This document shows, piece by piece, positions 1 through 40,563 of a stretch of 40,563 nt of DNA (the first letter of the stretch is position 1; every line of letters starts with the position of its first letter). This stretch comes from a virus (Duplodnaviria; Heunggongvirae; Uroviricota; Caudoviricetes). The position numbers were made by a program, and so were the translations under genes. Under the pieces are notes generated by a model. It was not told the DNA's origin. It made no database searches and saw only the letters and a list, made by a program, of their open reading frames with translations. The DNA lies in the IMG/VR virus record IMGVR_UViG_2778261280_000005, positions 1 to 40,563 of that record. One strand, given 5' to 3'.

Positions 1-1248
1 ATGGCACTGAATATTCCATTCAGAAATGCGTACTATCGTTTTGCATCCAGTTACTCATTTCTCTTTTTTATTTCCTGGTCGCTGTGGTGGTCGTTATACG
101 CTATTTGGCTGAAAGGACATCTAGGGTTGACAGGGACGGAATTAGGTACACTTTATTCGGTCAACCAGTTTACCAGCATTCTATTTATGATGTTCTACGG
201 CATCGTTCAGGATAAACTCGGTCTGAAGAAACCGCTCATCTGGTGTATGAGTTTCATCCTGGTCTTGACCGGACCGTTTATGATTTACGTTTATGAACCG
301 TTACTGCAAAGCAATTTTTCTGTAGGTCTAATTCTGGGGGCGCTATTTTTTGGCTTGGGGTATCTGGCGGGATGCGGTTTGCTTGATAGCTTCACCGAAA
401 AAATGGCGCGAAATTTTCATTTCGAATATGGAACAGCGCGCGCCTGGGGATCTTTTGGCTATGCTATTGGCGCGTTCTTTGCCGGCATATTTTTTAGTAT
501 CAGTCCCCATATCAACTTCTGGTTGGTCTCGCTATTTGGCGCTGTATTTATGATGATCAACATGCGTTTTAAAGATAAGGATCACCAGTGCGTAGCGGCA
601 GATGCGGGAGGGGTAAAAAAAGAGGATTTTATCGCAGTTTTCAAGGATCGAAACTTCTGGGTTTTCGTCATATTTATTGTGGGGACGTGGTCTTTCTATA
701 ACATTTTTGATCAACAACTTTTTCCTGTCTTTTATGCAGGTTTATTCGAATCACACGATGTAGGAACGCGCCTGTATGGTTATCTCAACTCATTCCAGGT
801 GGTACTCGAAGCGCTGTGCATGGCGATTATTCCTTTCTTTGTGAATCGGGTAGGGCCAAAAAATGCATTACTTATCGGAGTTGTGATTATGGCGTTGCGT
901 ATCCTTTCCTGCGCGCTGTTCGTTAACCCCTGGATTATTTCATTAGTGAAGTTGTTACATGCCATTGAGGTTCCACTTTGTGTCATATCCGTCTTCAAAT
1001 ACAGCGTGGCAAACTTTGATAAGCGCCTGTCGTCGACGATCTTTCTGATTGGTTTTCAAATTGCCAGTTCGCTTGGGATTGTGCTGCTTTCAACGCCGAC
1101 TGGGATACTCTTTGACCACGCAGGCTACCAGACAGTTTTCTTCGCAATTTCGGGTATTGTCTGCCTGATGTTGCTATTTGGCATTTTCTTCTTGAGTAAA
1201 AAACGCGAGCAAATAGTTATGGAAACGCCTGTACCTTCAGCAATATAG
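1..1248 (+). CDS. cscB: Sucrose:H+ symporter, LacY-family MFS permease (host gene)
   Basis: 415-aa ORF with ATG at nt 1; strongly hydrophobic multi-TM protein; N-terminus MALNIPFRNAYYRF... matches my recollection of E. coli CscB; not database-verified. Confidence 0.75.
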   Translation: MALNIPFRNAYYRFASSYSFLFFISWSLWWSLYAIWLKGHLGLTGTELGTLYSVNQFTSILFMMFYGIVQDKLGLKKPLIWCMSFILVLTGPFMIYVYEPLLQSNFSVGLILGALFFGLGYLAGCGLLDSFTEKMARNFHFEYGTARAWGSFGYAIGAFFAGIFFSISPHINFWLVSLFGAVFMMINMRFKDKDHQCVAADAGGVKKEDFIAVFKDRNFWVFVIFIVGTWSFYNIFDQQLFPVFYAGLFESHDVGTRLYGYLNSFQVVLEALCMAIIPFFVNRVGPKNALLIGVVIMALRILSCALFVNPWIISLVKLLHAIEVPLCVISVFKYSVANFDKRLSSTIFLIGFQIASSLGIVLLSTPTGILFDHAGYQTVFFAISGIVCLMLLFGIFFLSKKREQIVMETPVPSAI

Positions 1249-10518: not shown

Positions 10519-11226
10519 TTACCAACTATGAGACGACCAGAATACTCTGCCAATAATCCTTACGGTTTCATGAAATTCATCTCTATCCATTACTTCATCC
10601 GGGTACTCTTCGCGATTTATTGATCTGATTATCACCGATGTAGGGGTGGCGATTAATGTTTTTACTCGTAACAAATCAGACTGGCAAATAGCGTAGGTTT
10701 TACCATCTCTGATTGTGGTATCTTGCGTGTTAACACCAACAACATCGCCATCGTGAAGCGTTGGTTCCATGCTTTGCCCTACAACCCTAACTAGCTTGGC
10801 TGATCTTTCTGATACTCCCATCTTTTTCAGATAGTGCTTTCTGAAAACCAAAGAGAACTCCGATGATTCCTCTAGCTCGCAGCTACCGCTTCCAGCTGAA
10901 AGCGAAACGTTAAGAAGAGGCAACGCAACAAACTCGTCATCGTTTCTTTTAATGTCTTCCCATACCACAGCTTTTAAAGATGACTCACGGACATTGGATG
11001 GTTCTTCATGTGCACCATCCCTCATTTCACCAATACCAGAACTAAGCCATTCAGGACGCACTTTTAAAGCATTGGCTAATTCAACCATCTTGCGAGATCC
11101 GTTTGTTTTACCGGACGACATCTTCTGTATGGCTGGCTGAGATATTCCAACCATGTCAGCAAGCTGTGATTGTGATACCCCTGCTGAGCTCATGGCTGCA
11201 TTTAGTCTTTCTGCGAATGTTTTCAT
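10519..11226 (-). CDS. cI: CI-type prophage repressor (HTH plus LexA-like S24 peptidase domain)
   Basis: Start re-set to ATG at 11226 (track start at 11256 is TTG); N-terminal HTH (SQSQLADMVGISQPAIQKM), C-terminal S24-like segment (...VVGQSMEPTLHDGDVV...); divergent from cro with three operators between. Confidence 0.85.
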   Translation of the reverse strand: MKTFAERLNAAMSSAGVSQSQLADMVGISQPAIQKMSSGKTNGSRKMVELANALKVRPEWLSSGIGEMRDGAHEEPSNVRESSLKAVVWEDIKRNDDEFVALPLLNVSLSAGSGSCELEESSEFSLVFRKHYLKKMGVSERSAKLVRVVGQSMEPTLHDGDVVGVNTQDTTIRDGKTYAICQSDLLRVKTLIATPTSVIIRSINREEYPDEVMDRDEFHETVRIIGRVFWSSHSW

Positions 11227-11238
11227 ACCCACAAATCT

Positions 11239-11301
11239 ATAACTACGGTTATCCAAAGTAAAATAACAAAGGTTATTGCTATTTTTTATAACTTGAGTTA
11301 T
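11239..11301. promoter_or_regulatory. OR operators (three ATAAC-N4-GTTAT sites) with pRM/pR
   Basis: ATAACTACGGTTAT (11239-11252), ATAACAAAGGTTAT (11263-11276), ATAACTTGAGTTAT (11288-11301); centre spacing about 24-25 bp, between divergent cI and cro. Confidence 0.6.
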
Positions 11302-13023: not shown

Positions 13024-14449
13024 TTTTTATGCGCCGCCCCATAGCATCGAGGCAGAGCAGGCGGTGATTGGTGGATTGCTTCTGGATGATGACAGCAGTG
13101 AGCGCGTCCAGAAGGTTCTGGCGATGCTGAAGCCTGACTCATTTTACAGCCGACCACACAAAATCCTTTTCGAAGAAATAACCAGAATGCACCGGGAGCA
13201 AAAGCCAGTAGATGGCCTGACGCTTTTCGATGAACTGGAGCGTAAATCGTTAACGGCGTCTGTTGGCGGTTTTGCTTATATCGCTGAGATCGCAAAGAAC
13301 ACGCCAAGCGCCGCAAACATCGTTGCCTATGCAATGCAGGTTCGTGAAACCGCAATGGAACGCTACGCCATCAACCGCATGACTGAAGCGACGGAATTGC
13401 TCTATTCCCGCAACGGAATGACTGCAACGCAGAAGTACGAAGCTATTCAGGCGATTTTCACGCAACTGACAGACCATGCAAAAACCGGATCGCGTCGCGG
13501 CCTTCGCTCATTTGGCGAGGTCATGGAAGACTGGGTTAGCGACCTTGAGAAGCGATTTGACCCGTCAGGCGAACAGCGAGGAATGAGCACAGGCATCCCA
13601 TCGCTGGACAGGATGCTGTCACCGAAAGGTCTGGTGAAAGGCTCTCTGTTTGTCATTGGCGCTCGCCCTAAGATGGGGAAAACGACGCTATACAGCCAGA
13701 TGGCAATCAACTGCGCAGTGCATGAGAAAAAGCCCGCTCTGATGTTCAGCCTTGAAATGCCAGGTGACCAGATACTGGAAAAACTGGTAGGGCAGAAGTC
13801 AGGTGTTAACCCGAATATTTTTTACCTTCCGGCGACAAATGACTCTGATGACGGCTATCAGGGTGATTACGATGGTGACTTCAACAGGGCGATCGAAACA
13901 GCCAATCGCTTGAGTGAAATCGACCTGCTTTACATCGACGACACGCCGGGATTATCTCTGGCTCAAATCGTCAGCGAAAGCCGTCGAATCAAGCGAGAAA
14001 AAGGATGTGTTGGCATGATTCTGGTCGATTACCTGACACTAATGACCGCTGAGAAGGCCGATCGCAACGACCTTGCTTACGGCATGATCACCAAAGGACT
14101 GAAGAACCTTGCCAAAGAGCTTGATTGCGTTGTTGTGCTTCTGACGCAGCTTAACCGCGCACTGGAAAGCCGAACCAATAAACGCCCATTACCAAGTGAC
14201 TCACGGGATACAGGGCAGATTGAACAGGATTGCGATTATTGGGTCGGGATCCATCGTGAAGGCGCTTTTGATGACAGTGTTCCACCTGGTGAAACTGAAC
14301 TAATCCTTCGTCTCAATCGTCATGGCAATACCGGCACGGTGTATTGCATTCAGGCAAATGGAGCTATTTATGACACAGACCAACAGTCTGCTGAAATGCG
14401 CCGCCGTGAACGCGAGGAACCGCAGTCCAAGAAGAAAGGAGGATTCTGA
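13013..14449 (+). CDS. DnaB-family replicative helicase
   Basis: About 478 aa; N-terminal PHSIEAEQAVIGGLLLD DnaB signature; Walker A GARPKMGKT; start at ATG 13013 overlapping the end of the initiator gene. Confidence 0.85.
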   Translation: MTDNFYAPPHSIEAEQAVIGGLLLDDDSSERVQKVLAMLKPDSFYSRPHKILFEEITRMHREQKPVDGLTLFDELERKSLTASVGGFAYIAEIAKNTPSAANIVAYAMQVRETAMERYAINRMTEATELLYSRNGMTATQKYEAIQAIFTQLTDHAKTGSRRGLRSFGEVMEDWVSDLEKRFDPSGEQRGMSTGIPSLDRMLSPKGLVKGSLFVIGARPKMGKTTLYSQMAINCAVHEKKPALMFSLEMPGDQILEKLVGQKSGVNPNIFYLPATNDSDDGYQGDYDGDFNRAIETANRLSEIDLLYIDDTPGLSLAQIVSESRRIKREKGCVGMILVDYLTLMTAEKADRNDLAYGMITKGLKNLAKELDCVVVLLTQLNRALESRTNKRPLPSDSRDTGQIEQDCDYWVGIHREGAFDDSVPPGETELILRLNRHGNTGTVYCIQANGAIYDTDQQSAEMRRREREEPQSKKKGGF

Positions 14450-14532
14450 TGACCATCTACATCACTGAGCTAATAACAGGCCTGCTAGTAATCGCAGGTC
14501 TTTTTATTTGGGGGAGAGTAAATCGTGGTTGA
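14449..14532 (+). CDS. Small hydrophobic peptide (27 aa)
   Basis: ATG overlaps the helicase stop (TGATG) and follows the strong RBS AAGGAGG; MTIYITELITGLLVIAGLFIWGRVNRG. Confidence 0.25.
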   Translation: MTIYITELITGLLVIAGLFIWGRVNRG

Positions 14533-18412: not shown

Positions 18413-18487
18413 GGGTCAGTCGTATAAAGGTCATTACGGAAGGCTGTTAACCTTCTTATCGTGGTTCGAGTCCACGCTGTCCCGCCA
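18413..18487 (+). tRNA. tRNA-Asn-like (anticodon GUU), phage-encoded
   Basis: Manual fold: acceptor GGGTCAG/CTGTCCC (one T-T mismatch), D-loop with GG, anticodon arm GAAGG-CTGTTAA-CCTTC, T-arm CGTGG-TTCGAGT-CCACG, 3' GCCA; the imperfect acceptor stem lowers confidence. Confidence 0.55.
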
Positions 18488-18492
18488 AACAT

Positions 18493-18568
18493 GCTGGTTT
18501 AGCTCCAATGGTAGAGCAGTCGCCTTGTAAGCGAATGGGTAGCGGTTCAAGTCCGTTAACCAGCACCA
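18493..18568 (+). tRNA. tRNA-Thr (anticodon UGU), phage-encoded
   Basis: Manual fold: perfect 7-bp acceptor GCTGGTT/AACCAGC, D-arm GCTC-CAATGGTA-GAGC, anticodon loop CTTGTAA, T-arm AGCGG-TTCAAGT-CCGTT, discriminator A plus CCA; 76 nt. Confidence 0.75.
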
Positions 18569-20372: not shown

Positions 20373-20891
20373 ATGAATCATCAATTGGCTAATCTCGATT
20401 TCCGGGACATGGTGGTTGTTTCTGGTGATCGCGTGATCACAACCTCCCGCAAGGTAGCGGCTTACTTCGACAAGCAGCATCACCACATCATTCAGAAAAT
20501 CGAAAAGCTAGACTGTTCGGATGAATTTCTAACCAGCAACTTTTCGCGGGTTACCTATGAACACAAGGGTAATCAGTATGTTGAATATGAAATTTCCAAA
20601 GACGGCGCGATGTACATCATCATGTCGTTTACCGGCAAAAAAGCTGCCGCCATCAAAGAGGCGTTTATCAAAGCATTTAATTGGATGCGTGACAGGCTGA
20701 TGGAGATGGCTCACTCATACCAAAGAGAGCACAACGAGTTAATGCTGGAGTTCATGAAGGAAAAGGATGTTGCCAGTATGTCAGGACGCTTGCTGAACCG
20801 CTGGGGCAGGATCAAAAAACCGCAACTCATAGCAAGAATCGAAAGGCTTGAGCAGCAGGCGCAAATATCGATCCCCGGACTGCCAAAGTGA
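20373..20891 (+). CDS. rha: Rha-family phage regulatory protein
   Basis: 172-aa ORF located between lysis and terminase genes as P22 rha is; N-terminal region resembles the Rha domain by recollection. Confidence 0.65.
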   Translation: MNHQLANLDFRDMVVVSGDRVITTSRKVAAYFDKQHHHIIQKIEKLDCSDEFLTSNFSRVTYEHKGNQYVEYEISKDGAMYIIMSFTGKKAAAIKEAFIKAFNWMRDRLMEMAHSYQREHNELMLEFMKEKDVASMSGRLLNRWGRIKKPQLIARIERLEQQAQISIPGLPK

Positions 20892-32175: not shown

Positions 32176-33564
32176 ATGGCTACTTGGCAAGGAACAAACG
32201 GCGGATTGTTGGCTGGTATCGGCGGCGTCAACTCAAACGCTCCGAGCGTAAATGACATCGGCAATACGCTTCAGCTTATCAGGCAGAACAATGATATTGA
32301 GCGTTCAGGCGCTAACAATGTTGGGCTGACTGCTTTGCAAGGCCTTTCAGGTATTGCGGGGGTGTTTCAGCAGGAAAAGCAGGCTCAGCGGCAGAAAGAA
32401 TTTCAGCAGGCATACGCTAATGCTTATGCGTCTGGTGATCGCGGTGCTTTGCGTCAGTTGGCTACTCAATATCCAGACCAGATTGAATCCGTTCGTAAAG
32501 GCATGGGATTCATTGATGAAGAGCAGCGTAATTCTATCGGCACCTTAGCGGCTGGCGCACGCCTTGCGGCCTCGTCTCCAGAAGCAATGCAATCATGGCT
32601 GCAAAACAACGCCAAGGAACTGACTCGCGTCGGTGTTGACCCTAATAACGTTGCTCAGATGTATCAGCAGAATCCTTCAGGATTTGGTGAGTTTGTTGAT
32701 CACCTTGGAATGGCCGCGCTTGGTCCGATTGATTACTTCAATGTTCAGGACAAGATGGCTGGTCGTGAGATTGATCGCGGAAAACTTGCAGAGACAATCC
32801 GCAGCAATCAGGCTGGCGAGGCGCTAACAGCACGAGGCCAGAACATCACGATGCGCGGTCAGGACTTATCTGCTTCTACTGCGCGACGAGGTCAGGATTT
32901 GGCAATGCAGCGAGCGTCAACAAGAGGAATCGCTGGGAATGATGAGCGTACAGTTCAGTTATCAGATGGCAGAACTGTAACGGTAGGCGGGAAGCTTCAT
33001 GGCGCTGGGGCTAATGCGTTCTACGAAGGTATCGACAACGAGGGGAATATGGTTCGCGTTCCTGCCAGTTCAATCGCAGCGCCTGCAACATCGTCTGCAT
33101 CAGCACAAAACTATGCCATGAAGAAGGATATCGACGCGATCGCAAATGCAGACGCTTCTGCTCTCGATTTCATGACAGGAATGACCGGCGGCGCAGGTAA
33201 CCCGGCAATTGGTGCTGATGTTCGCAGCCGATTAACAGGAAAAGAGCAGCGCCAGTTATATAACTCAGCACAACGCATTCAGGGCAGAATGCAGAATCAG
33301 GGTGTGGCGGCAGCAAGGGACATGGGGGCCAGTGGTATTAACACCGTTGCAGAAGCGAAGATGTATTTTCAGGGGATGCCGCAGGTTGACTATTCAAGCC
33401 CGGAGGCTATGCAGCAGTCGATTCGTGAAATTCAGGAATACACCAACAATTACAACCAACAATATAACGTTAATGTTGGTAAATCTCAGCGGAAGCAATC
33501 TCAACCTGCACAGGTATCACAGCCAGCAGCCAGCAGTAACTTTTCTTCACTATGGGGTGATTAA
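32176..33564 (+). CDS. Ejection protein, P22 gp20-type
   Basis: 462 aa, position and composition. Confidence 0.8.
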
Positions 33565-35561
33565 TGGCTAAAGCATGGAAAGATGTTATCGCCTCTCCAC
33601 AGTATCAGGCGTTAGCACCAGAACAAAAAGCGCAGGCTCAGGAGCAATACTTCAATGAAGTCGTGGCCCCGCAAGCCGGAGAAAATGCAGAGCAGGCTAA
33701 GCAAGCTTTCTATGCTGCCTATCCATTGCCATCTGTGCAGCCAGTGGAGACACAACAACCATTAGCACAGCAACAACCACAGCAAAGTGGATTTATGTCT
33801 GATCTTGGCGAAGCAGTAAGAGAGACTGGTCGCGGACTGGTGCAGGCTGGCGTGAACGTGGCAAACATACCTGCATCAGTTGCCGATGCTGTAACAAGTG
33901 CGGCGGCATGGGCCGGCGGTAAACTCGGTATTGGCGATGGAACATACCAACCAGCGCCACGAGTAACAACGCAGGGATTGGAGCAGGACTTTGGCCTTCA
34001 GCAAGGTGCGCTGACTCCACAAACGACAGAGGGAAGGGTATTTGCTGAAGCATTGCCTTACCTCACTCCTGCTGGCGTTGAGAGAGCGGCAGCACAGGCA
34101 CCAACACTTGCTGGTCGAATTGCTCAGGGGGCAACTCGCCTTCTCGCTGAAAACGCAGTTGGATCACTTGCTGCAAATAGTGCGAAAGATGATGCGGAAG
34201 CACTCGCCACCGATTTAGGCGTTGGTGTACTTGCTGGCGGTGCTATTAACGCTGCTGGACGTGGATTAGGTGCTGCTTATCGTGGCGTTCGTGGTGCTAT
34301 CACGCCAGAAGCGCAGCAGGCTATCAGATTTGCAGAGCGTGAAGGAGTTCCTCTGCACACCACAGACCTGTTACAACCCACTTCCCGCGTCGGAAAAATG
34401 GCGCAGACTACAGCAGAAAATATCCCTCTGGCTGGCACAAGCGGAATGAGAGCAACGCAACAGGAAGCGAGAAGCCAGTTGGTGCAGAGATTTGCCGATA
34501 AATTCGGTGAGTATGATCCAGCGGTTATTATTGACAGCCTTAAAGCGAAAACATCAGGAATTCGTCGTGCCGCCGGTAATCGACTGGAGCAGGTTCAGAA
34601 TGCTATGGCGGGAGTCAATATCCAGCCTGCGCGAGCAATTCAGCAGATTGATACTGAGATATCTAATCTGCAGAAGCTTGGTAAGGTAGCTGATAACGAG
34701 ACAATTTCAAAACTTCAGTCATATCGTGATGAGCTTGTTCGCAATGCTGGCCCTGATGGTCCGGTAAATCTGGATTTGAAGCAATTAAGCGACCTGCGCA
34801 GCCAGTTCAGAATGGACGTGAAGGGTGAGCGACCAGTGTTACCAAACCGTTCAGATGCTGCCATTCAGCGCGTTTACAAGGCAATGACTGACGATATCAA
34901 TGGTGCCATTGGTCAGAATCTTGGCAACGATACTCTCCGTAAATATCAGCAGGCCAATGCCGTCTATGCTGACGAAGCTGCGAAACTAAAGAATACCAGG
35001 CTGAAGAATGTTCTCATGAAAGGCGATCTGACGCCGGAAGTTGTCAACAACATGCTATTCAGCAAGAACAAATCGGAAATTAAGACTCTGTATAACTCAG
35101 TTGGTCGTGTTGGCAGGGCGCAAATGCGCAATGGCATCATTGGAAAGGCGATGGAGAAATCAGGTGGTTCCCCTGACCAGTTCCTTCGGCAGCTTAACAT
35201 CCTGCAAAACCAGACTGGCATCACATTTAAAGGTCAGGAAGCCGCTTATCTGAAAGGATTGAAAAACTACCTGCAATCCACGCAGCAGGCTGCAAAAGCG
35301 GCAGTAACAACACCAACAGGGCAGCAAACCATCCCGTTCATTATCGGGTATGGGACGGCAATGAACCCGGCGACAACTGGCGCAGCGGTAAGCTACGGAC
35401 TTCTTACTCGCGCCTATGAGAGCGAGCCATTCAGAAATGCAATGCTCCGAATGGCAAACACCCCACGCGGATCAACAGCGTTTGAGAAAGCCATGCAGCA
35501 GGCGCAAAAGGCCATTAACGCCCTGACTCAAGGTGCCAAGTCTGATGCGTTGTCAGAATAG
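33564..35561 (+). CDS. Ejection protein, P22 gp16-type
   Basis: 665 aa, position and composition. Confidence 0.8.
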   Translation: MAKAWKDVIASPQYQALAPEQKAQAQEQYFNEVVAPQAGENAEQAKQAFYAAYPLPSVQPVETQQPLAQQQPQQSGFMSDLGEAVRETGRGLVQAGVNVANIPASVADAVTSAAAWAGGKLGIGDGTYQPAPRVTTQGLEQDFGLQQGALTPQTTEGRVFAEALPYLTPAGVERAAAQAPTLAGRIAQGATRLLAENAVGSLAANSAKDDAEALATDLGVGVLAGGAINAAGRGLGAAYRGVRGAITPEAQQAIRFAEREGVPLHTTDLLQPTSRVGKMAQTTAENIPLAGTSGMRATQQEARSQLVQRFADKFGEYDPAVIIDSLKAKTSGIRRAAGNRLEQVQNAMAGVNIQPARAIQQIDTEISNLQKLGKVADNETISKLQSYRDELVRNAGPDGPVNLDLKQLSDLRSQFRMDVKGERPVLPNRSDAAIQRVYKAMTDDINGAIGQNLGNDTLRKYQQANAVYADEAAKLKNTRLKNVLMKGDLTPEVVNNMLFSKNKSEIKTLYNSVGRVGRAQMRNGIIGKAMEKSGGSPDQFLRQLNILQNQTGITFKGQEAAYLKGLKNYLQSTQQAAKAAVTTPTGQQTIPFIIGYGTAMNPATTGAAVSYGLLTRAYESEPFRNAMLRMANTPRGSTAFEKAMQQAQKAINALTQGAKSDALSE

Positions 35562-35630
35562 CTTCGCAAACACCAGGAACGTGCAAAAACCAAATATGTA
35601 GAACGCAATATTCAGCATGTCTCTTTGCAT
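35553..35630 (-). CDS. Small hydrophobic peptide (25 aa) downstream of mnt
   Basis: MQRDMLNIAFYIFGFCTFLVFAKLF; ATG 35630 seven nt after GGAGGA; 3' end overlaps the gp16 stop region; speculative. Confidence 0.25.
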   Translation of the reverse strand: MQRDMLNIAFYIFGFCTFLVFAKLF

Positions 35631-35650
35631 AAATCCTCCGTAACTGATAG

Positions 35651-35944
35651 TTAGCTGCTGTCTTTTTTATATAGCTCTTTGAGCGTATCAAAGACAATTT
35701 TCTTAACCATATCAGATTGTTGTTCTGCCATACGCTCTGCATCGTCAATGTAAACTGATGCAGAGCTTTGTTTAGCCAATGATTCTTCAATCGCTGCAAT
35801 TATCTCTGAGTTCAGAGACCTGTTATTCATCTTCGCACGCTGTTTAATTTTCGCGTGGAGTTCATGCGGAAGTCTCAAGTGAAACTGCGCCTCGTCGTAT
35901 TTGCTGTACATCCTTGATGCCTCACCAGTTGGGTGGAATGGCAT
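35651..35944 (-). CDS. mnt: Mnt-like ribbon-helix-helix repressor
   Basis: C-terminal ...DAERMAEQQSDMVKKIVFDTLKELYKK matches P22 Mnt ...DAERLADEQSELVKKMVFDTLKDLYKK (recollection); start may be ATG 35944 or 35911. Confidence 0.7.
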   Translation of the reverse strand: MPFHPTGEASRMYSKYDEAQFHLRLPHELHAKIKQRAKMNNRSLNSEIIAAIEESLAKQSSASVYIDDAERMAEQQSDMVKKIVFDTLKELYKKDSS

Positions 35945-36032
35945 CGTAACCTACTGGATAAATACTCAATAGTACCATTTCGGTATGCAATCACATCATG
36001 GTTGCATCATATCATTCGTCTGGAGCAATGAA

Positions 36033-37961
36033 ATGTCAGATATCACCGCAAATGTTGTGGTAAGCATGCCTTCGCAACTCTTCACTATGGCTCGTTCTTT
36101 TAAAGCCGTAGCCAATGGCAAAATTTATATCGGTAAAATTGACACGGACCCTGTAAATCCTGAAAACCAGATTCAGGTTTATGTGGAGAACGAAGACGGT
36201 TCTCACGTTCCTGTTGCACAGCCAATCATCATTAACTCTGCTGGATATCCTGTATATAACGGACAGATTGCCAAATTCGTAACTGTGCAAGGCCATTCTA
36301 TGGCTGTGTACGATGCGTACGGTGCGCAGCAGTTTTATTTTCCAAATGTGCTGAAGTATGACCCTGATCAGTTACGGAATGATTTATCCAGCGGATCAAA
36401 TAATCTCGGTGACAACCTTGTTGCTGTAAAGCAGCCATTCCCTCTGGTGATGCAAAGAACGCAACATGATTTCAACGCAGATTATATAAATGTCAAGGAT
36501 TGGGGTGCAAAAGGGGACGGTGTAACAGATGACACCAATGCCATCGACGCCGCGTGTGCAGCATTAACAGGAACTAGTTTAGTCACTAACTTCCGTAGAC
36601 TGTACTTACCGCATGGTACATATATCTACAATGGGGCGGGTATCACTCTGCCGAGTGGGACCACTATTTGCGGGGAAGATTTATTCACAATAATCGACGC
36701 CTCGAATAATGCCAACTCAGGATATTTAGTAACCCTGGTAGGATTTGGAGCGCGACTAGAAACACTACGCTTAAAAGGGAATGCAAGTAATGCTAACCTT
36801 AAGGGGATTTCTAGCGCGTATAACTCGGATAATGGCGGTGTTGTAGACGCAATACTTGAAGACTTCCACTACGGTATGGATATTGATAAATGTTGGTACT
36901 CTGTGTACCAAAATATCCGTTTCCGTCGTAGTGGCTCATCTGTGGTGCTAACAGGATCACATATCCGAATTGGCTACAATCAGCCAACAAAGGAAGTCAA
37001 CAACGTTAACTTCTCAAATATATGGATGACAGGGCAGCAAGCACATTCAGTGACCGTACATTGCAAAACTCAAACTCTTACATGGAATGAGTGCTCGTTC
37101 GAAACTAAAGGTCAGTCACGCATATACTTTGCTACTGCAGAATCAGTAAACACGTTTACCCTCAACTCTTGTTATATCGAGGGGGATGTAGAATCCTCGT
37201 CTTACCCATATTTGGTAGAGGGGCAGACTGTAAATCAGGTAATAACCTGTAACGATTGCATGTTCCGTTTAGGAAACACAGCTAGCTCACTTGGTAAGAA
37301 CATCACTATCAATTTAAACGGCGGTTGGTCCAATAGCCCTGACGTATCTTTACAGTCTAATAATACCAAAGTTTGGATGACTAACTATCTTTACTTAGGC
37401 GCATTCTCTGACGCCCCTAATTACAGTCAGTCTGGCGATTACGACGGCTCAGCTATGCACAGTGCTTCGGTGATGATGTCTCCAAGACCAATGGATATAA
37501 GGGATTGGAATTCAGTGATACCTCATTACGTAAATTACAAGACACACCAATCGACCTCACCAGTTGATATATTCAAGATTTACATTCCAACCGGATCAAA
37601 TCCGAGACAAATGCTTCTAAATATAAAAGCATTAACAAAAAGCACAAGTGAAACATATATTCAGGGAGTTGAGGAATATATGTTAGCGATAACATTGCCA
37701 GAAACTTCAACTCCAGGAACTGGGACATACGTAGCAAAATTACACTCTTCATCAAAAGATAACGCAACATTGCTTTCTGATATGGCGTTTAGTATCACAT
37801 CAAATGGTTATGACAGCACAACTGATGCTTACGAATACACTATTTCTCATAGCGTTTCTAATAGCACCAGGCTTGGAACTACTACATATGTTATGAATGG
37901 AGTATTCACGTTAAATGGTTTATCTACAACAACACCTAAATGGAGAATTCGTCGATTGTAA
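36033..37961 (+). CDS. Tailspike: P22-type head-binding N-domain plus divergent beta-helix receptor-binding domain
   Basis: 642 aa from ATG 36033 (GGAG RBS); N-terminus [68 protein letters not shown]... matches the P22/Sf6 tailspike head-binding domain; remainder unlike P22, with a pectate-lyase-like motif [19 protein letters not shown]. Confidence 0.85.
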
Positions 37962-39405: not shown

Positions 39406-40563
39406 TCACTCCACCTTTTCATCAAGCCAATCTGCCCACCACTGCATCATTTCTCTGCGCTTATCGAGATACTGAGCATGGTTGTAAATTCCACGCACAG
39501 ATCCGCCGTTGGCATGTGCCAGTTGCACTTCAATAGCGTCAGCAGGCCATTCGTGCTCGTTCATAATCGTGCTGAATTCATGCCTGAATCCGTGACCGCT
39601 TTCCAGACCTTCATAGCCGATTTGTTTGATCACAAGTAGCACCGCGTTCTCGCAGATTGGCTTCTTCTTATCGTTGCGCCCGGCAAAAACAAACTCTGAT
39701 ACTGGTTTGGTGATTGAGCTTAGCGTAGTGAGAAGTTCAACCACCTGGTCTGACATCGGGACCACATGAATCTTTCGGCCCTTCATCACACTGGCGTCGA
39801 TGGTGATAATCCTGTTTTCAAAATCGACGTTCTTCCATAGCATGGAACGAAGCTCTTTTGTTCTTAGGGCTGTGTAGCGTAAAACTTTGGTCGCAATGAG
39901 CGATACGATACTTCCTGAAAATGTTGCCAGTGCTTTGTTGAATGCAGGCATCTGGTCTGCTGGAAGGAACGGGAAGTTCTTCTTGCGGTATCCTTTCATG
40001 GCGTCTGCAAGGTCAGGTGCCGGGTTATATTTAGCCCTTCCGGTGACAATAGCGTAACGAAAAACCTCGCCGCATCTTCTGCGGGCTTTGTTGGCTCGCT
40101 CCATTGCACCGCGATCTTCAAATCTGCGGATTACTTCCAGCAGTTGCATCGGCTCAATATCCTGAATTTCAAGGCCGCCGATGATAGGTAAAATGTCGTC
40201 ATCAAACATTTTTGCAAGTTCAGTCGCATACCCTACAGACCAGACTTGCTTCTTGTGCTCGTACCATTCCTTGTAAATCGCACTAAATGAATTGTTGTTA
40301 GACGAAGCTTTTTTCGCCTTTACCGGATCGATGCCAACCGAGATGTCTTTCCTCGCAGTCCATGCCTTATCCCTTGCCTCCTGCAAAGTCATTAGCGGAT
40401 ATTTTCCTACGGTCAGGATTTTCTCCTTACCGTCAATCTTGTAGCGAAGCTGCCATACCTTTTTCCCGGATACAGGGACATAAAGGTACAGGCCATTACC
40501 ATCGAGAAGGCGGTATGGTTTTTCTTTCGGCTTTGCTGCTTCAATCTGCTTAACGGTGAGCAT
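39406..40563 (-). CDS. int: Tyrosine integrase (P4/IntS-type, tRNA-targeting)
   Basis: 385 aa; start codon is the last 3 nt of the window; C-terminal catalytic region with ...HGFRHEF... and ...RGIYNHAQY... (R/H-x-x-R/Y motifs). Confidence 0.9.
   Translation of the reverse strand: MLTVKQIEAAKPKEKPYRLLDGNGLYLYVPVSGKKVWQLRYKIDGKEKILTVGKYPLMTLQEARDKAWTARKDISVGIDPVKAKKASSNNNSFSAIYKEWYEHKKQVWSVGYATELAKMFDDDILPIIGGLEIQDIEPMQLLEVIRRFEDRGAMERANKARRRCGEVFRYAIVTGRAKYNPAPDLADAMKGYRKKNFPFLPADQMPAFNKALATFSGSIVSLIATKVLRYTALRTKELRSMLWKNVDFENRIITIDASVMKGRKIHVVPMSDQVVELLTTLSSITKPVSEFVFAGRNDKKKPICENAVLLVIKQIGYEGLESGHGFRHEFSTIMNEHEWPADAIEVQLAHANGGSVRGIYNHAQYLDKRREMMQWWADWLDEKVE

Follow-up and report, generated by a model that had tools for sequence, protein, structure and literature searches.

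Between gene 16 and the tailspike gene (gene 9), P22-like phages carry described accessory elements to which the locus reported here can be compared. One is the immI region of P22, together with its reduced, mnt-only versions known as 'ant morons', which have been published for ST64T, ST104 and Para1, where mnt is accompanied by one unknown gene, and of which Sf6 has none (Villafane et al., PMC2629481); phage L also carries an mnt-only 'ant moron' (PMC8022706). Another is SieA of P22, an inner-membrane superinfection-exclusion protein of 162-164 amino acids with three transmembrane segments, which is escaped by changes at G532 and P546 of P22 gp16 (Leavitt et al. 2024, PMC10883804). A third is STnc6030, an abundant lysogenic transcript of the P22-like Salmonella prophage BTP1, classed as non-coding because it holds no open reading frame (ORF) of more than 60 amino acids (Owen et al. 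2020, PMC7067206) and still listed as an antisense RNA in a 2025 review. We have analysed a stretch of 40,563 nucleotides, IMG/VR record IMGVR_UViG_2778261280_000005 (hereafter the window, to which positions refer unless another genome is named), which by gene order and Pfam matches is a P22-like (Lederbergvirus) prophage. The intergenic span from its gene 16 to its tailspike gene is 471 bp long and is the site of the finding: on the minus strand lie an mnt gene and a 25-codon gene for a hydrophobic micropeptide. An earlier reading of the letters alone (the sequence-only reading) treated the latter as a side feature; it is the valuable part of the finding.

Our overall explanation, to which we assign a probability of about 0.5, is that the locus combines a minimal 'ant moron' of the P22-like phages with an exclusion-type micropeptide gene belonging to the gene-16 module. 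The moron is reduced to an intact mnt under selection, a site resembling a leftward promoter and a single 17-bp dyad; without Pant, arc, sar and ant, the locus lacks what defines functional secondary immunity in P22. With P22 immI and the morons of ST64T, ST104, Para1 and L it shares its location between gene 16 and gene 9, a leftward mnt and a two-domain Mnt protein. Its putative operator and predicted mnt promoter (Pmnt) stand at the same relative positions as in P22, and arc and ant have been lost as in ST64T and L. It differs from P22 immI in the recognition strand of the repressor, QFHLRL, and in an operator whose TACC-N5-GGTA arms are shorter than the 8 bp of P22's. ST64T and L carry a lipoprotein-like gene of the orf62 type, whereas the moron of the window is mnt alone, directly upstream of the micropeptide gene.

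The micropeptide gene adjoining gene 16

The micropeptide gene (MQRDMLNIAFYIFGFCTFLVFAKLF; 35553-35630, minus strand) specifies a peptide with a polar N-terminus, after which comes a single membrane-spanning stretch. The gene begins 20 nt past the stop codon of mnt, with no terminator between the two, and its ATG is preceded at a distance of 3 nt by a Shine-Dalgarno (SD) sequence, GGAGGA (35634-35639, minus strand), as the sequence-only reading had described. Its far end overlaps the final 9 nt of gene 16 (33564-35561, plus strand), which encodes a DNA ejection protein of 665 amino acids and of the Sf6/L/BTP1 type, whose homologues are named 'P22-gp16 family phage DNA ejection protein' by PGAP. 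The micropeptide gene is very probably co-transcribed with mnt.

To follow the gene across relatives, 79 window-type loci were fetched from IMG/VR solely by way of the gene-16 C-terminus, and 80 BTP1-type loci by way of the C-terminus of BTP1-type gene 16 (77-100% identity). The micropeptide ORF is intact in every one of them (79/79 and 80/80, or 159/159). In the BTP1 type it has 23 codons, with the consensus MERDLLNFAFLIFGLVVGKLLFA, and takes the form of 42 distinct sequences in the 80 loci. A further IMG/VR set, assembled by pattern, was excluded from the selection statistics because it is biased toward an intact core peptide.

The pattern of substitution indicates that the ORF is protein-coding. 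In the micropeptide frame the ratio of nonsynonymous to synonymous polymorphism (pN/pS) is 0.36 for the window type (35 distinct sequences) and 0.26 for the BTP1 type, as against 0.7-2.3 for the other frames over both types (0.7-1.8 for the window type); the exception among these is the wobble-paired antisense frame, at 0.36-0.39 (0.39 in the window type), which is closed by stop codons. Second positions account for one of the 15 polymorphic sites of the window type (P 0.0045), and diversity in its hydrophobic core is 0.021, 0.005 and 0.043 at first, second and third codon positions, the figure for third positions of gene 16 being 0.121. The decisive coding data come from the more divergent BTP1-type set of 80 loci, in which pS is 0.66 and pN 0.175, polymorphic sites by codon position number 13/8/19 of 19 (Fisher 1e-4, third versus second) and diversity by codon position is 0.23/0.12/0.49, compared with 0.10/0.03/0.45 in gene 16. 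The SD motif is present in 77 of these 80 loci, with the same GGAGG-N4-ATG geometry. Between the two subtypes, moreover, arginine is written CGT or AGA and leucine TTA or CTG, which are synonymous swaps of more than one base. Judged by these substitutions, the ORF is a conserved protein-coding gene. A different candidate on the plus strand, a read-through extension of gp16 whose frame stays open for 30 codons past the TAG (35562-35653), was rejected, its pN/pS being 1.83 and 1.08.

The micropeptides are an unannotated family of 23-25 amino acids with one hydrophobic helix, which ranges over prophages of Escherichia, Shigella, Salmonella, Kluyvera, Pseudescherichia and Erwinia and always stands next to one gene-16 type. 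The gene is also present, unannotated, in ST64T and L, and a pattern scan of genome contigs, which is highly degenerate (4 of its 44 matches are true family members), located members in Kluyvera, Pseudescherichia, Ca. Erwinia dacicola and Escherichia sp. genomes. Neither phage nor RefSeq records annotate the gene, an exact look-up of 17 peptide variants in a collection of 15 billion proteins returned none (0/17), and in the literature searched we found no earlier description of the small ORF and no reinterpretation of STnc6030. P22 orf25, which likewise encodes 25 amino acids, was considered as a relative and rejected, its sequence being unrelated.

With or without mnt, the gene adjoins the stop codon of the Sf6/L/BTP1-type gene 16, to which it runs in the opposite direction. 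The mnt-less Sf6 shares positions 35480-35631 with the window, the whole micropeptide ORF included; Sf101, which has mnt and a different gene 16, shares sequence from 35643 on only and has no micropeptide ORF. Matches in E. coli break at the same two points, 35631 and 35643, and similarity to the mnt-less phages starts again at about 36000, by the tailspike gene. The ORF is found without any mnt in Sf6, in BTP1 and in at least 10 of the 79 window-type loci, and mnt without the ORF in Sf101 and in many E. coli matches that start at 35643 or 35679. Among the 79 loci the ORF is followed by the window-type mnt, by a lipoprotein gene and then mnt, by two lipoprotein genes with an ST160-type mnt or by a VSe13-type cluster, or else has the tailspike gene as its immediate neighbour, and at least four unrelated sequences precede its conserved ATG. 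These boundaries place the micropeptide gene in the gene-16 module and mnt in a separate mosaic module. The genes inserted between mnt and the micropeptide gene in relatives L007 (1951-2472), L022 (1951-2466 and 2571-2990) and L291 (1761-2063) are lipoprotein-like, with a signal peptide and then a cysteine, and the leftward moron unit seems to collect envelope proteins.

STnc6030, SieA and the C-terminus of gp16

A function for the micropeptide is suggested by what has been published on BTP1. A plasmid clone of STnc6030 excludes BTP1 completely but not P22, and it leaves prophage induction unaffected; the four single-nucleotide polymorphisms (SNPs) that escape it fall within 36 bp, and each is a non-synonymous change to gene 16 (PMC7067206). 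We mapped the clone, the SNPs and the Northern bands onto the BTP1 genome from the published coordinates and primers. The clone corresponds to BTP1 13703-14488 on the minus strand and contains a member of the micropeptide family at 14011-14082, on the same strand and with a GGAGGG site. The escape SNPs correspond to residues 583-595 of BTP1 gp16 (ILGIGTVTNPALV), the most hydrophobic stretch of that protein, and their cluster lies 172 nt beyond the stop codon of the micropeptide ORF. The Northern species of 480-500 nt would stop at 13989-14009, immediately beyond the stop codon of the ORF and before the SNPs, leaving 172 nt to the proposed antisense 'seed'. When gp16 C-termini are aligned, residues 583-595 of BTP1 are matched by residues 540-552 of P22, which include the SieA-escape position P546, and residues 593-605 of the window gp16 (IIGYGTAMNPATT) align with both the BTP1 escape segment and P546. 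The gene for SieA itself occupies the same locus in P22, directly after gene 16 and on the opposite strand; the paper on SieA makes no mention of BTP1 (PMC10883804).

A block to DNA entry at the level of protein fits these observations better than an antisense mechanism does, because a single base change defeats what would be a long antisense RNA, because the STnc6030 clone has no effect on induction and because escape maps to the segment of gp16 that SieA targets. We infer that the micropeptide is a superinfection-exclusion peptide. It resembles SieA in position and strand and in its hydrophobicity, and SieA is expressed from the prophage, as the peptide would be; the BTP1 transcript, for its part, excludes self-type phage, spares induction and is escaped in the aligned hydrophobic segment of gp16. 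It differs from SieA in having no sequence similarity to it (tblastn, Pfam), in accompanying another gp16 type, in the inferred standing of its exclusion role and in size, with a single helix in 23-25 amino acids rather than three helices in about 163. Nor did tblastn with P22 SieA, or Pfam, reveal in the micropeptide any homology to SieA types A-C, which have an FxRYPxEAxxFNK motif and 3-4 transmembrane segments.

The correspondence with STnc6030 is one of position, antisense to the 3' end of gene 16, and of content, the BTP1 family member with its GGAGG site lying inside the transcript. The differences are that STnc6030 has been described as a non-coding antisense RNA, that DNA identity in the region is too low for a megablast match and that the window has not kept the STnc6030 promoter, which lies within the tailspike gene: its -10 sequence TTCAAT reads TTCAGC here, and transcription would come from the mnt promoter instead. 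Among small membrane proteins, the type I toxins and their like (Ibs, ShoB, TisB) are also of about 19-35 amino acids with a single hydrophobic helix and, as the micropeptide gene does with late mRNA, show full antisense overlap; we found no sequence relation to them and no dedicated antitoxin RNA in Rfam. The strict linkage of the micropeptide gene to the gene for a virion ejection protein points to a function between phages.

It is unlikely, in our estimation, that the stretch after gene 16 acts as an STnc6030-like antisense RNA on late mRNA and that the ORF within it is incidental. This is the published model for BTP1, founded on the abundance of the transcript in lysogens, on exclusion that acts on BTP1 rather than P22 and on the position of the escape SNPs inside the annotated transcript (PMC7067206), and the 2025 review repeats it; the lower variability of third codon positions in the window-type core than in gene 16, given above, is in its favour also. 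Substitutions that are periodic by codon, an ATG and SD sequence kept across unrelated contexts and synonymous multi-base codon swaps all speak for a coding sequence instead. Folding of the small-ORF region beats shuffled sequences on neither strand (z-scores -0.01 and 0.00), and Rfam gives no match to the region at E<=1. Antisense action should survive one mismatch in a duplex of more than 480 bp, the RNAs detected are too short to reach the site of the SNPs and the clone, as noted, leaves induction unchanged. We note separately a long ORF antisense to the head-binding domain of the tailspike (minus strand, 36036-36296 in the window and 14181-14351 in BTP1; 1183-1449 in the ST64T locus L291), which is open in several phages and lies inside STnc6030 in BTP1; constraint on the sense frame may have produced it as an artefact.

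The mnt gene, its operator and the tailspike gene

The ORF at 35651-35944 (minus strand) matches Pfam families Arc (PF03869, 1e-14) and Repressor_Mnt (PF11423, 3.3e-14), the Mnt structure 1MNT over residues 6-79 (E 3.4e-19) and the Mnt tetramerisation domain 1QEY (1.7e-8). Translation probably starts at the second ATG, at 35911, since a GAGG ribosome-binding site lies 8 nt upstream of it (35920-35923, minus strand), the alignment with the N-terminus of P22 Mnt begins there and PGAP calls the 261-nt form; the first ATG falls within the predicted -10 hexamer of Pmnt. The gene so defined (35651-35911) encodes an 86-amino-acid repressor of the Mnt family, with an N-terminal ribbon-helix-helix (RHH) and a C-terminal tetramerisation helix, which is 49% identical to P22 Mnt and carries QFHLRL as its DNA-reading strand where P22 has HFNFRM. 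A tblastn search of the window with P22 proteins found no homologue of Arc, Ant, SieA or orf59a, and Pfam found no antirepressor domain among 36 window ORFs besides a Rha-family protein. The sequence-only reading was therefore right to see an Mnt-like RHH gene without arc or ant, and right that it lies divergently from and upstream of the tailspike gene, whose start is at 36033 on the plus strand.

Purifying selection acts on mnt: 42 of 43 related loci have the gene intact, pN/pS is 0.15 and the N-terminal domain is nearly invariant. One relative from IMG/VR, L012, has a nonsense mutation at codon 32 of its orphan mnt, so that the gene is, at least now and then, dispensable. The linker codons of mnt also contain a perfect 10-bp inverted repeat, GCTCTGCATC/GATGCAGAGC (35734-35766), followed on the plus strand by TTTGTTT; about 1.5 inverted repeats of 10 bp are expected by chance in 40 kb, and this one could terminate rightward transcripts that are not antiterminated ahead of the tailspike gene. 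RefSeq calls mnt of P22 (NC_002371, 14519-14770) and its Sf101 homologue (NC_027398, 14284-14577) 'partition protein ATPase', which is a propagated misannotation.

An mnt gene standing alone is no rarity among such phages. Besides the published morons, IME10 and Sf101 share the mnt layout of the window at 95-97% identity, and more distant types of mnt adjoin the tailspike gene directly in VSe13, JEP4, vB_EcoP-720R6, ST160/SE1 and Proteus phage Brookers. Part of 35480-36060 is matched in 441 of 5426 complete E. coli genomes, and at least 80% of this span in 141 of the 5426. Orphan mnt is a documented and common variant in P22-like phages, and the Mnt half of the finding is not new.

The sequence-only reading had proposed a search of 35945-36032 for a palindromic Mnt operator, and a candidate is indeed present: the 17-bp AGTACCATTTCGGTATG (35971-35987), with the dyad TACC-N5-GGTA, which corresponds in position to Omnt of P22. 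An alignment of the intergenic regions next to mnt from seven phages sets it against P22 14828-14844. It adjoins the -35 sequence of the predicted leftward mnt promoter, and its centre is at about -43 relative to the predicted start of Pmnt, as in P22. Across three specificity types the dyad co-varies with the residues of the DNA-reading beta-strand. The strand HFNFR of P22 goes with the operator AGGTCCAC-G-GTGGACCT, QFNLR of ST160 and 720R6 with AGACCAC-N-GTGGTCT, and QFHLR of the window, VSe13 and JEP4 with GTACC-NTTTN-GGTAT, which VSe13 and JEP4 retain despite their diverged flanks. Within the window TACC-N5-GGTA recurs once, inside the coat gene, which leaves 35971-35987 as the only non-coding copy; that coding match and one other match with three mismatches are all that a search for further copies in the window produced, consistent with chance. 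Among the 119 matches to the 17-mer listed from IMG/VR, 101 lie between mnt and the tailspike gene and 17 are chance occurrences in unrelated coding DNA.

Immediately beside the operator lies the predicted leftward Pmnt (35943-35969, minus strand), the positional homologue of P22 Pmnt, with a -35 of TTGAGT (35969-35964), a -10 of TACGAT (35948-35943) and a 15-bp spacer; relatives have TTGTTG-17-TACGAT or TTGTGG-17-TATGAT. On a simple sigma-70 matrix, for which the median best score of shuffled sequence is 8.2, P22 Pant scores 15.5 and P22 Pmnt 13.4, and the leftward site at the position of Pmnt is kept in all orphan mnt types with scores of 7.4-11.3. An alternative candidate is an extended -10 promoter, TGaTATGAT (36006-36014, minus strand), whose score of 7.9 is not above shuffles; were it used, the operator would lie at about +13 to +29, an arrangement that would imply negative autoregulation. 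Overlapping the right edge of the operator, upstream of the tailspike ribosome-binding site, is an inverted repeat, ATGCAATCA/TGGTTGCAT (35985-36007), with a fold z-score of only -0.84. In Sf6 and other phages the hairpins are different ones, placed around a common GGTTGCAT just upstream of the tailspike ribosome-binding site. In some IMG/VR relatives, L010 (2342-2884) among them, an inserted gene for a 180-amino-acid homing endonuclease of the HNH/AP2 type separates the region of the mnt operator from the start of the tailspike gene, and one E. coli match (H37) is annotated with such an endonuclease in the same way.

The placement of mnt directly upstream of the tailspike gene had led the sequence-only reading to suggest that Mnt may act on the latter, either by controlling a tailspike-proximal promoter or by throttling late read-through. 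The operator is 46 bp upstream of the tailspike start codon and in the path of late transcription, transcripts from P22 Pant reach gene 9, with Mnt and Arc perhaps influencing read-through (Villafane et al., PMC2629481), and in lysogens of BTP1 there are additional starts of transcription in the neighbourhood of the tailspike gene. Control of a tailspike-proximal promoter nevertheless finds no support in the sequence, as no recognisable promoter points that way: the best rightward site of the window scores 6.5, below the shuffle median and far from the 15.5 of P22 Pant, an independent promoter scan was also empty, none of the five other orphan types has a rightward site above the shuffle median either and the internal promoter of BTP1 is not conserved here. 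Mnt may act as a roadblock to late transcription that reads through into the tailspike gene, although Q-modified polymerase usually ignores such obstacles. A new role of orphan Mnt as regulator of the tailspike appears to us improbable.

Equally doubtful is a role for orphan Mnt as a trans-acting immunity factor that, in superinfecting P22-like phages with the same type of operator, would keep the ant promoter repressed and so protect the prophage from induction. It would explain purifying selection on a repressor with no target gene in cis and the existence of several specificities of operator and recognition strand, as expected of immunity functions, and P22 Ant is known to act on heterologous repressors (PMC7380047). 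None of the 119 IMG/VR operator matches listed adjoins arc or ant, so that among these a guard against ant-carrying relatives has found no partner, and phage L, with an orphan mnt of its own, has been shown genetically to be without functional secondary immunity (PMC8022706).

It is very improbable that both genes are functionless, decaying remnants of a deleted immI, a possibility raised for phage L by Zaworski et al. and in keeping with the nonsense codon of L012, given a pN/pS of 0.15 for mnt and 0.26-0.36 for the peptide, a micropeptide ORF intact in 159 of 159 loci and an operator dyad kept in three specificity types. The toxin-antitoxin-like layout that the sequence-only reading had seen in mnt and the peptide, adjacent genes on one strand, an RHH protein of a kind common among antitoxins (Pfam gives HicB and FitA side matches) and a small hydrophobic peptide that could be toxic, is ruled out as a pair by their independent distribution, each gene being free of the other across the module boundary at 35631/35643 and a lipoprotein gene separating them in some relatives, while the protein has the whole of Mnt, tetramerisation domain included, and its putative operator stands where that of P22 does.

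Several observations weigh against our own explanation. The window subtype taken alone gives modest coding statistics, with a synonymous excess at P 0.04-0.07, and SD sites are weak in the Sf6-type and lipoprotein-type contexts. Peptides of the window and of BTP1 are about 50% identical, and the exclusion phenotype on record belongs to the BTP1 transcript, for which its authors favour an antisense mechanism, the escape SNPs falling within the annotated 786-nt transcript (PMC7067206). The promoters were predicted with a matrix and do not score above shuffled sequence, and the 15-bp spacer of the window Pmnt is poor. The operator lies outside the predicted core promoter, so autoregulation of either sign is possible, and the co-variation of operator and protein may be inherited from ancestors with a full immI.

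Setting of the locus and implications

The rest of the window, identified by gene order and Pfam, is that of a P22-like prophage, with an S24/helix-turn-helix repressor (10519-11256), homologues of Cro and CII, nin genes, Q, a lysis cassette, the genes for terminase, portal, scaffold and coat and three ejection-protein genes, the last of which is the gene-16 homologue. The tailspike gene (36033-37961, plus strand) encodes a P22-type head-binding domain (Pfam Head_binding, 7.5e-67) followed by a pectate-lyase-like beta-helix, and the Rha-family protein mentioned above (20373-20891) is also carried by P22. A pair of tRNA genes, tRNA-Asn(GTT) and tRNA-Thr(TGT), lies between Q and the holin gene (18413-18568), likewise in BTP1. 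The early-left end of the prophage is adjoined by a gene for a sugar permease of the LacY family (1-1248, plus strand; Pfam LacY_symp, 1e-193), and at the opposite end a P4-type integrase (39406-40563, minus strand) stands beside the O-antigen acyltransferase gene. From the positions of permease and integrase, the attachment site must be upstream of int, unlike in Sf6 and P22, where it is between acyltransferase and int.

In the mechanism that we propose for the moron and the micropeptide gene together, the mnt promoter would fire leftward in the lysogen, and Mnt, by binding its single putative operator, would autoregulate its own level. The mnt transcript would run on, with no terminator in its way, into the 25-codon gene. 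The tailspike gene would be transcribed by read-through of the late operon rather than from a promoter under the control of Mnt, and during lytic growth Q-modified late transcription would pass antisense through mnt and the micropeptide gene into it. The micropeptide would insert in the inner membrane of the lysogen and block the delivery of DNA by related phages through the hydrophobic C-terminal segment of the incoming gp16; by interfering with gp16 in this way it would act as a miniature SieA. STnc6030, published as an antisense RNA, would owe its activity to the BTP1 homologue that it encodes. In its most specific form, namely that these are the smallest superinfection-exclusion proteins known, that they jam the gp16 conduit, that STnc6030 is their mRNA and that the mnt cassette is an autoregulated promoter active in lysogens, the proposal is a tentative one, which we would hold at a little short of an even bet.

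Were it true, a published mechanism based on a non-coding RNA would need correcting, and phages that lack sieA (L, ST64T, Sf6 and BTP1) would carry a functional analogue of it at the same locus. A peptide of 25 residues would become a tool for probing the passage of gp16 across the inner membrane, and the persistence of lone mnt genes would be explained by a role as promoter cassettes for genes of lysogenic conversion.

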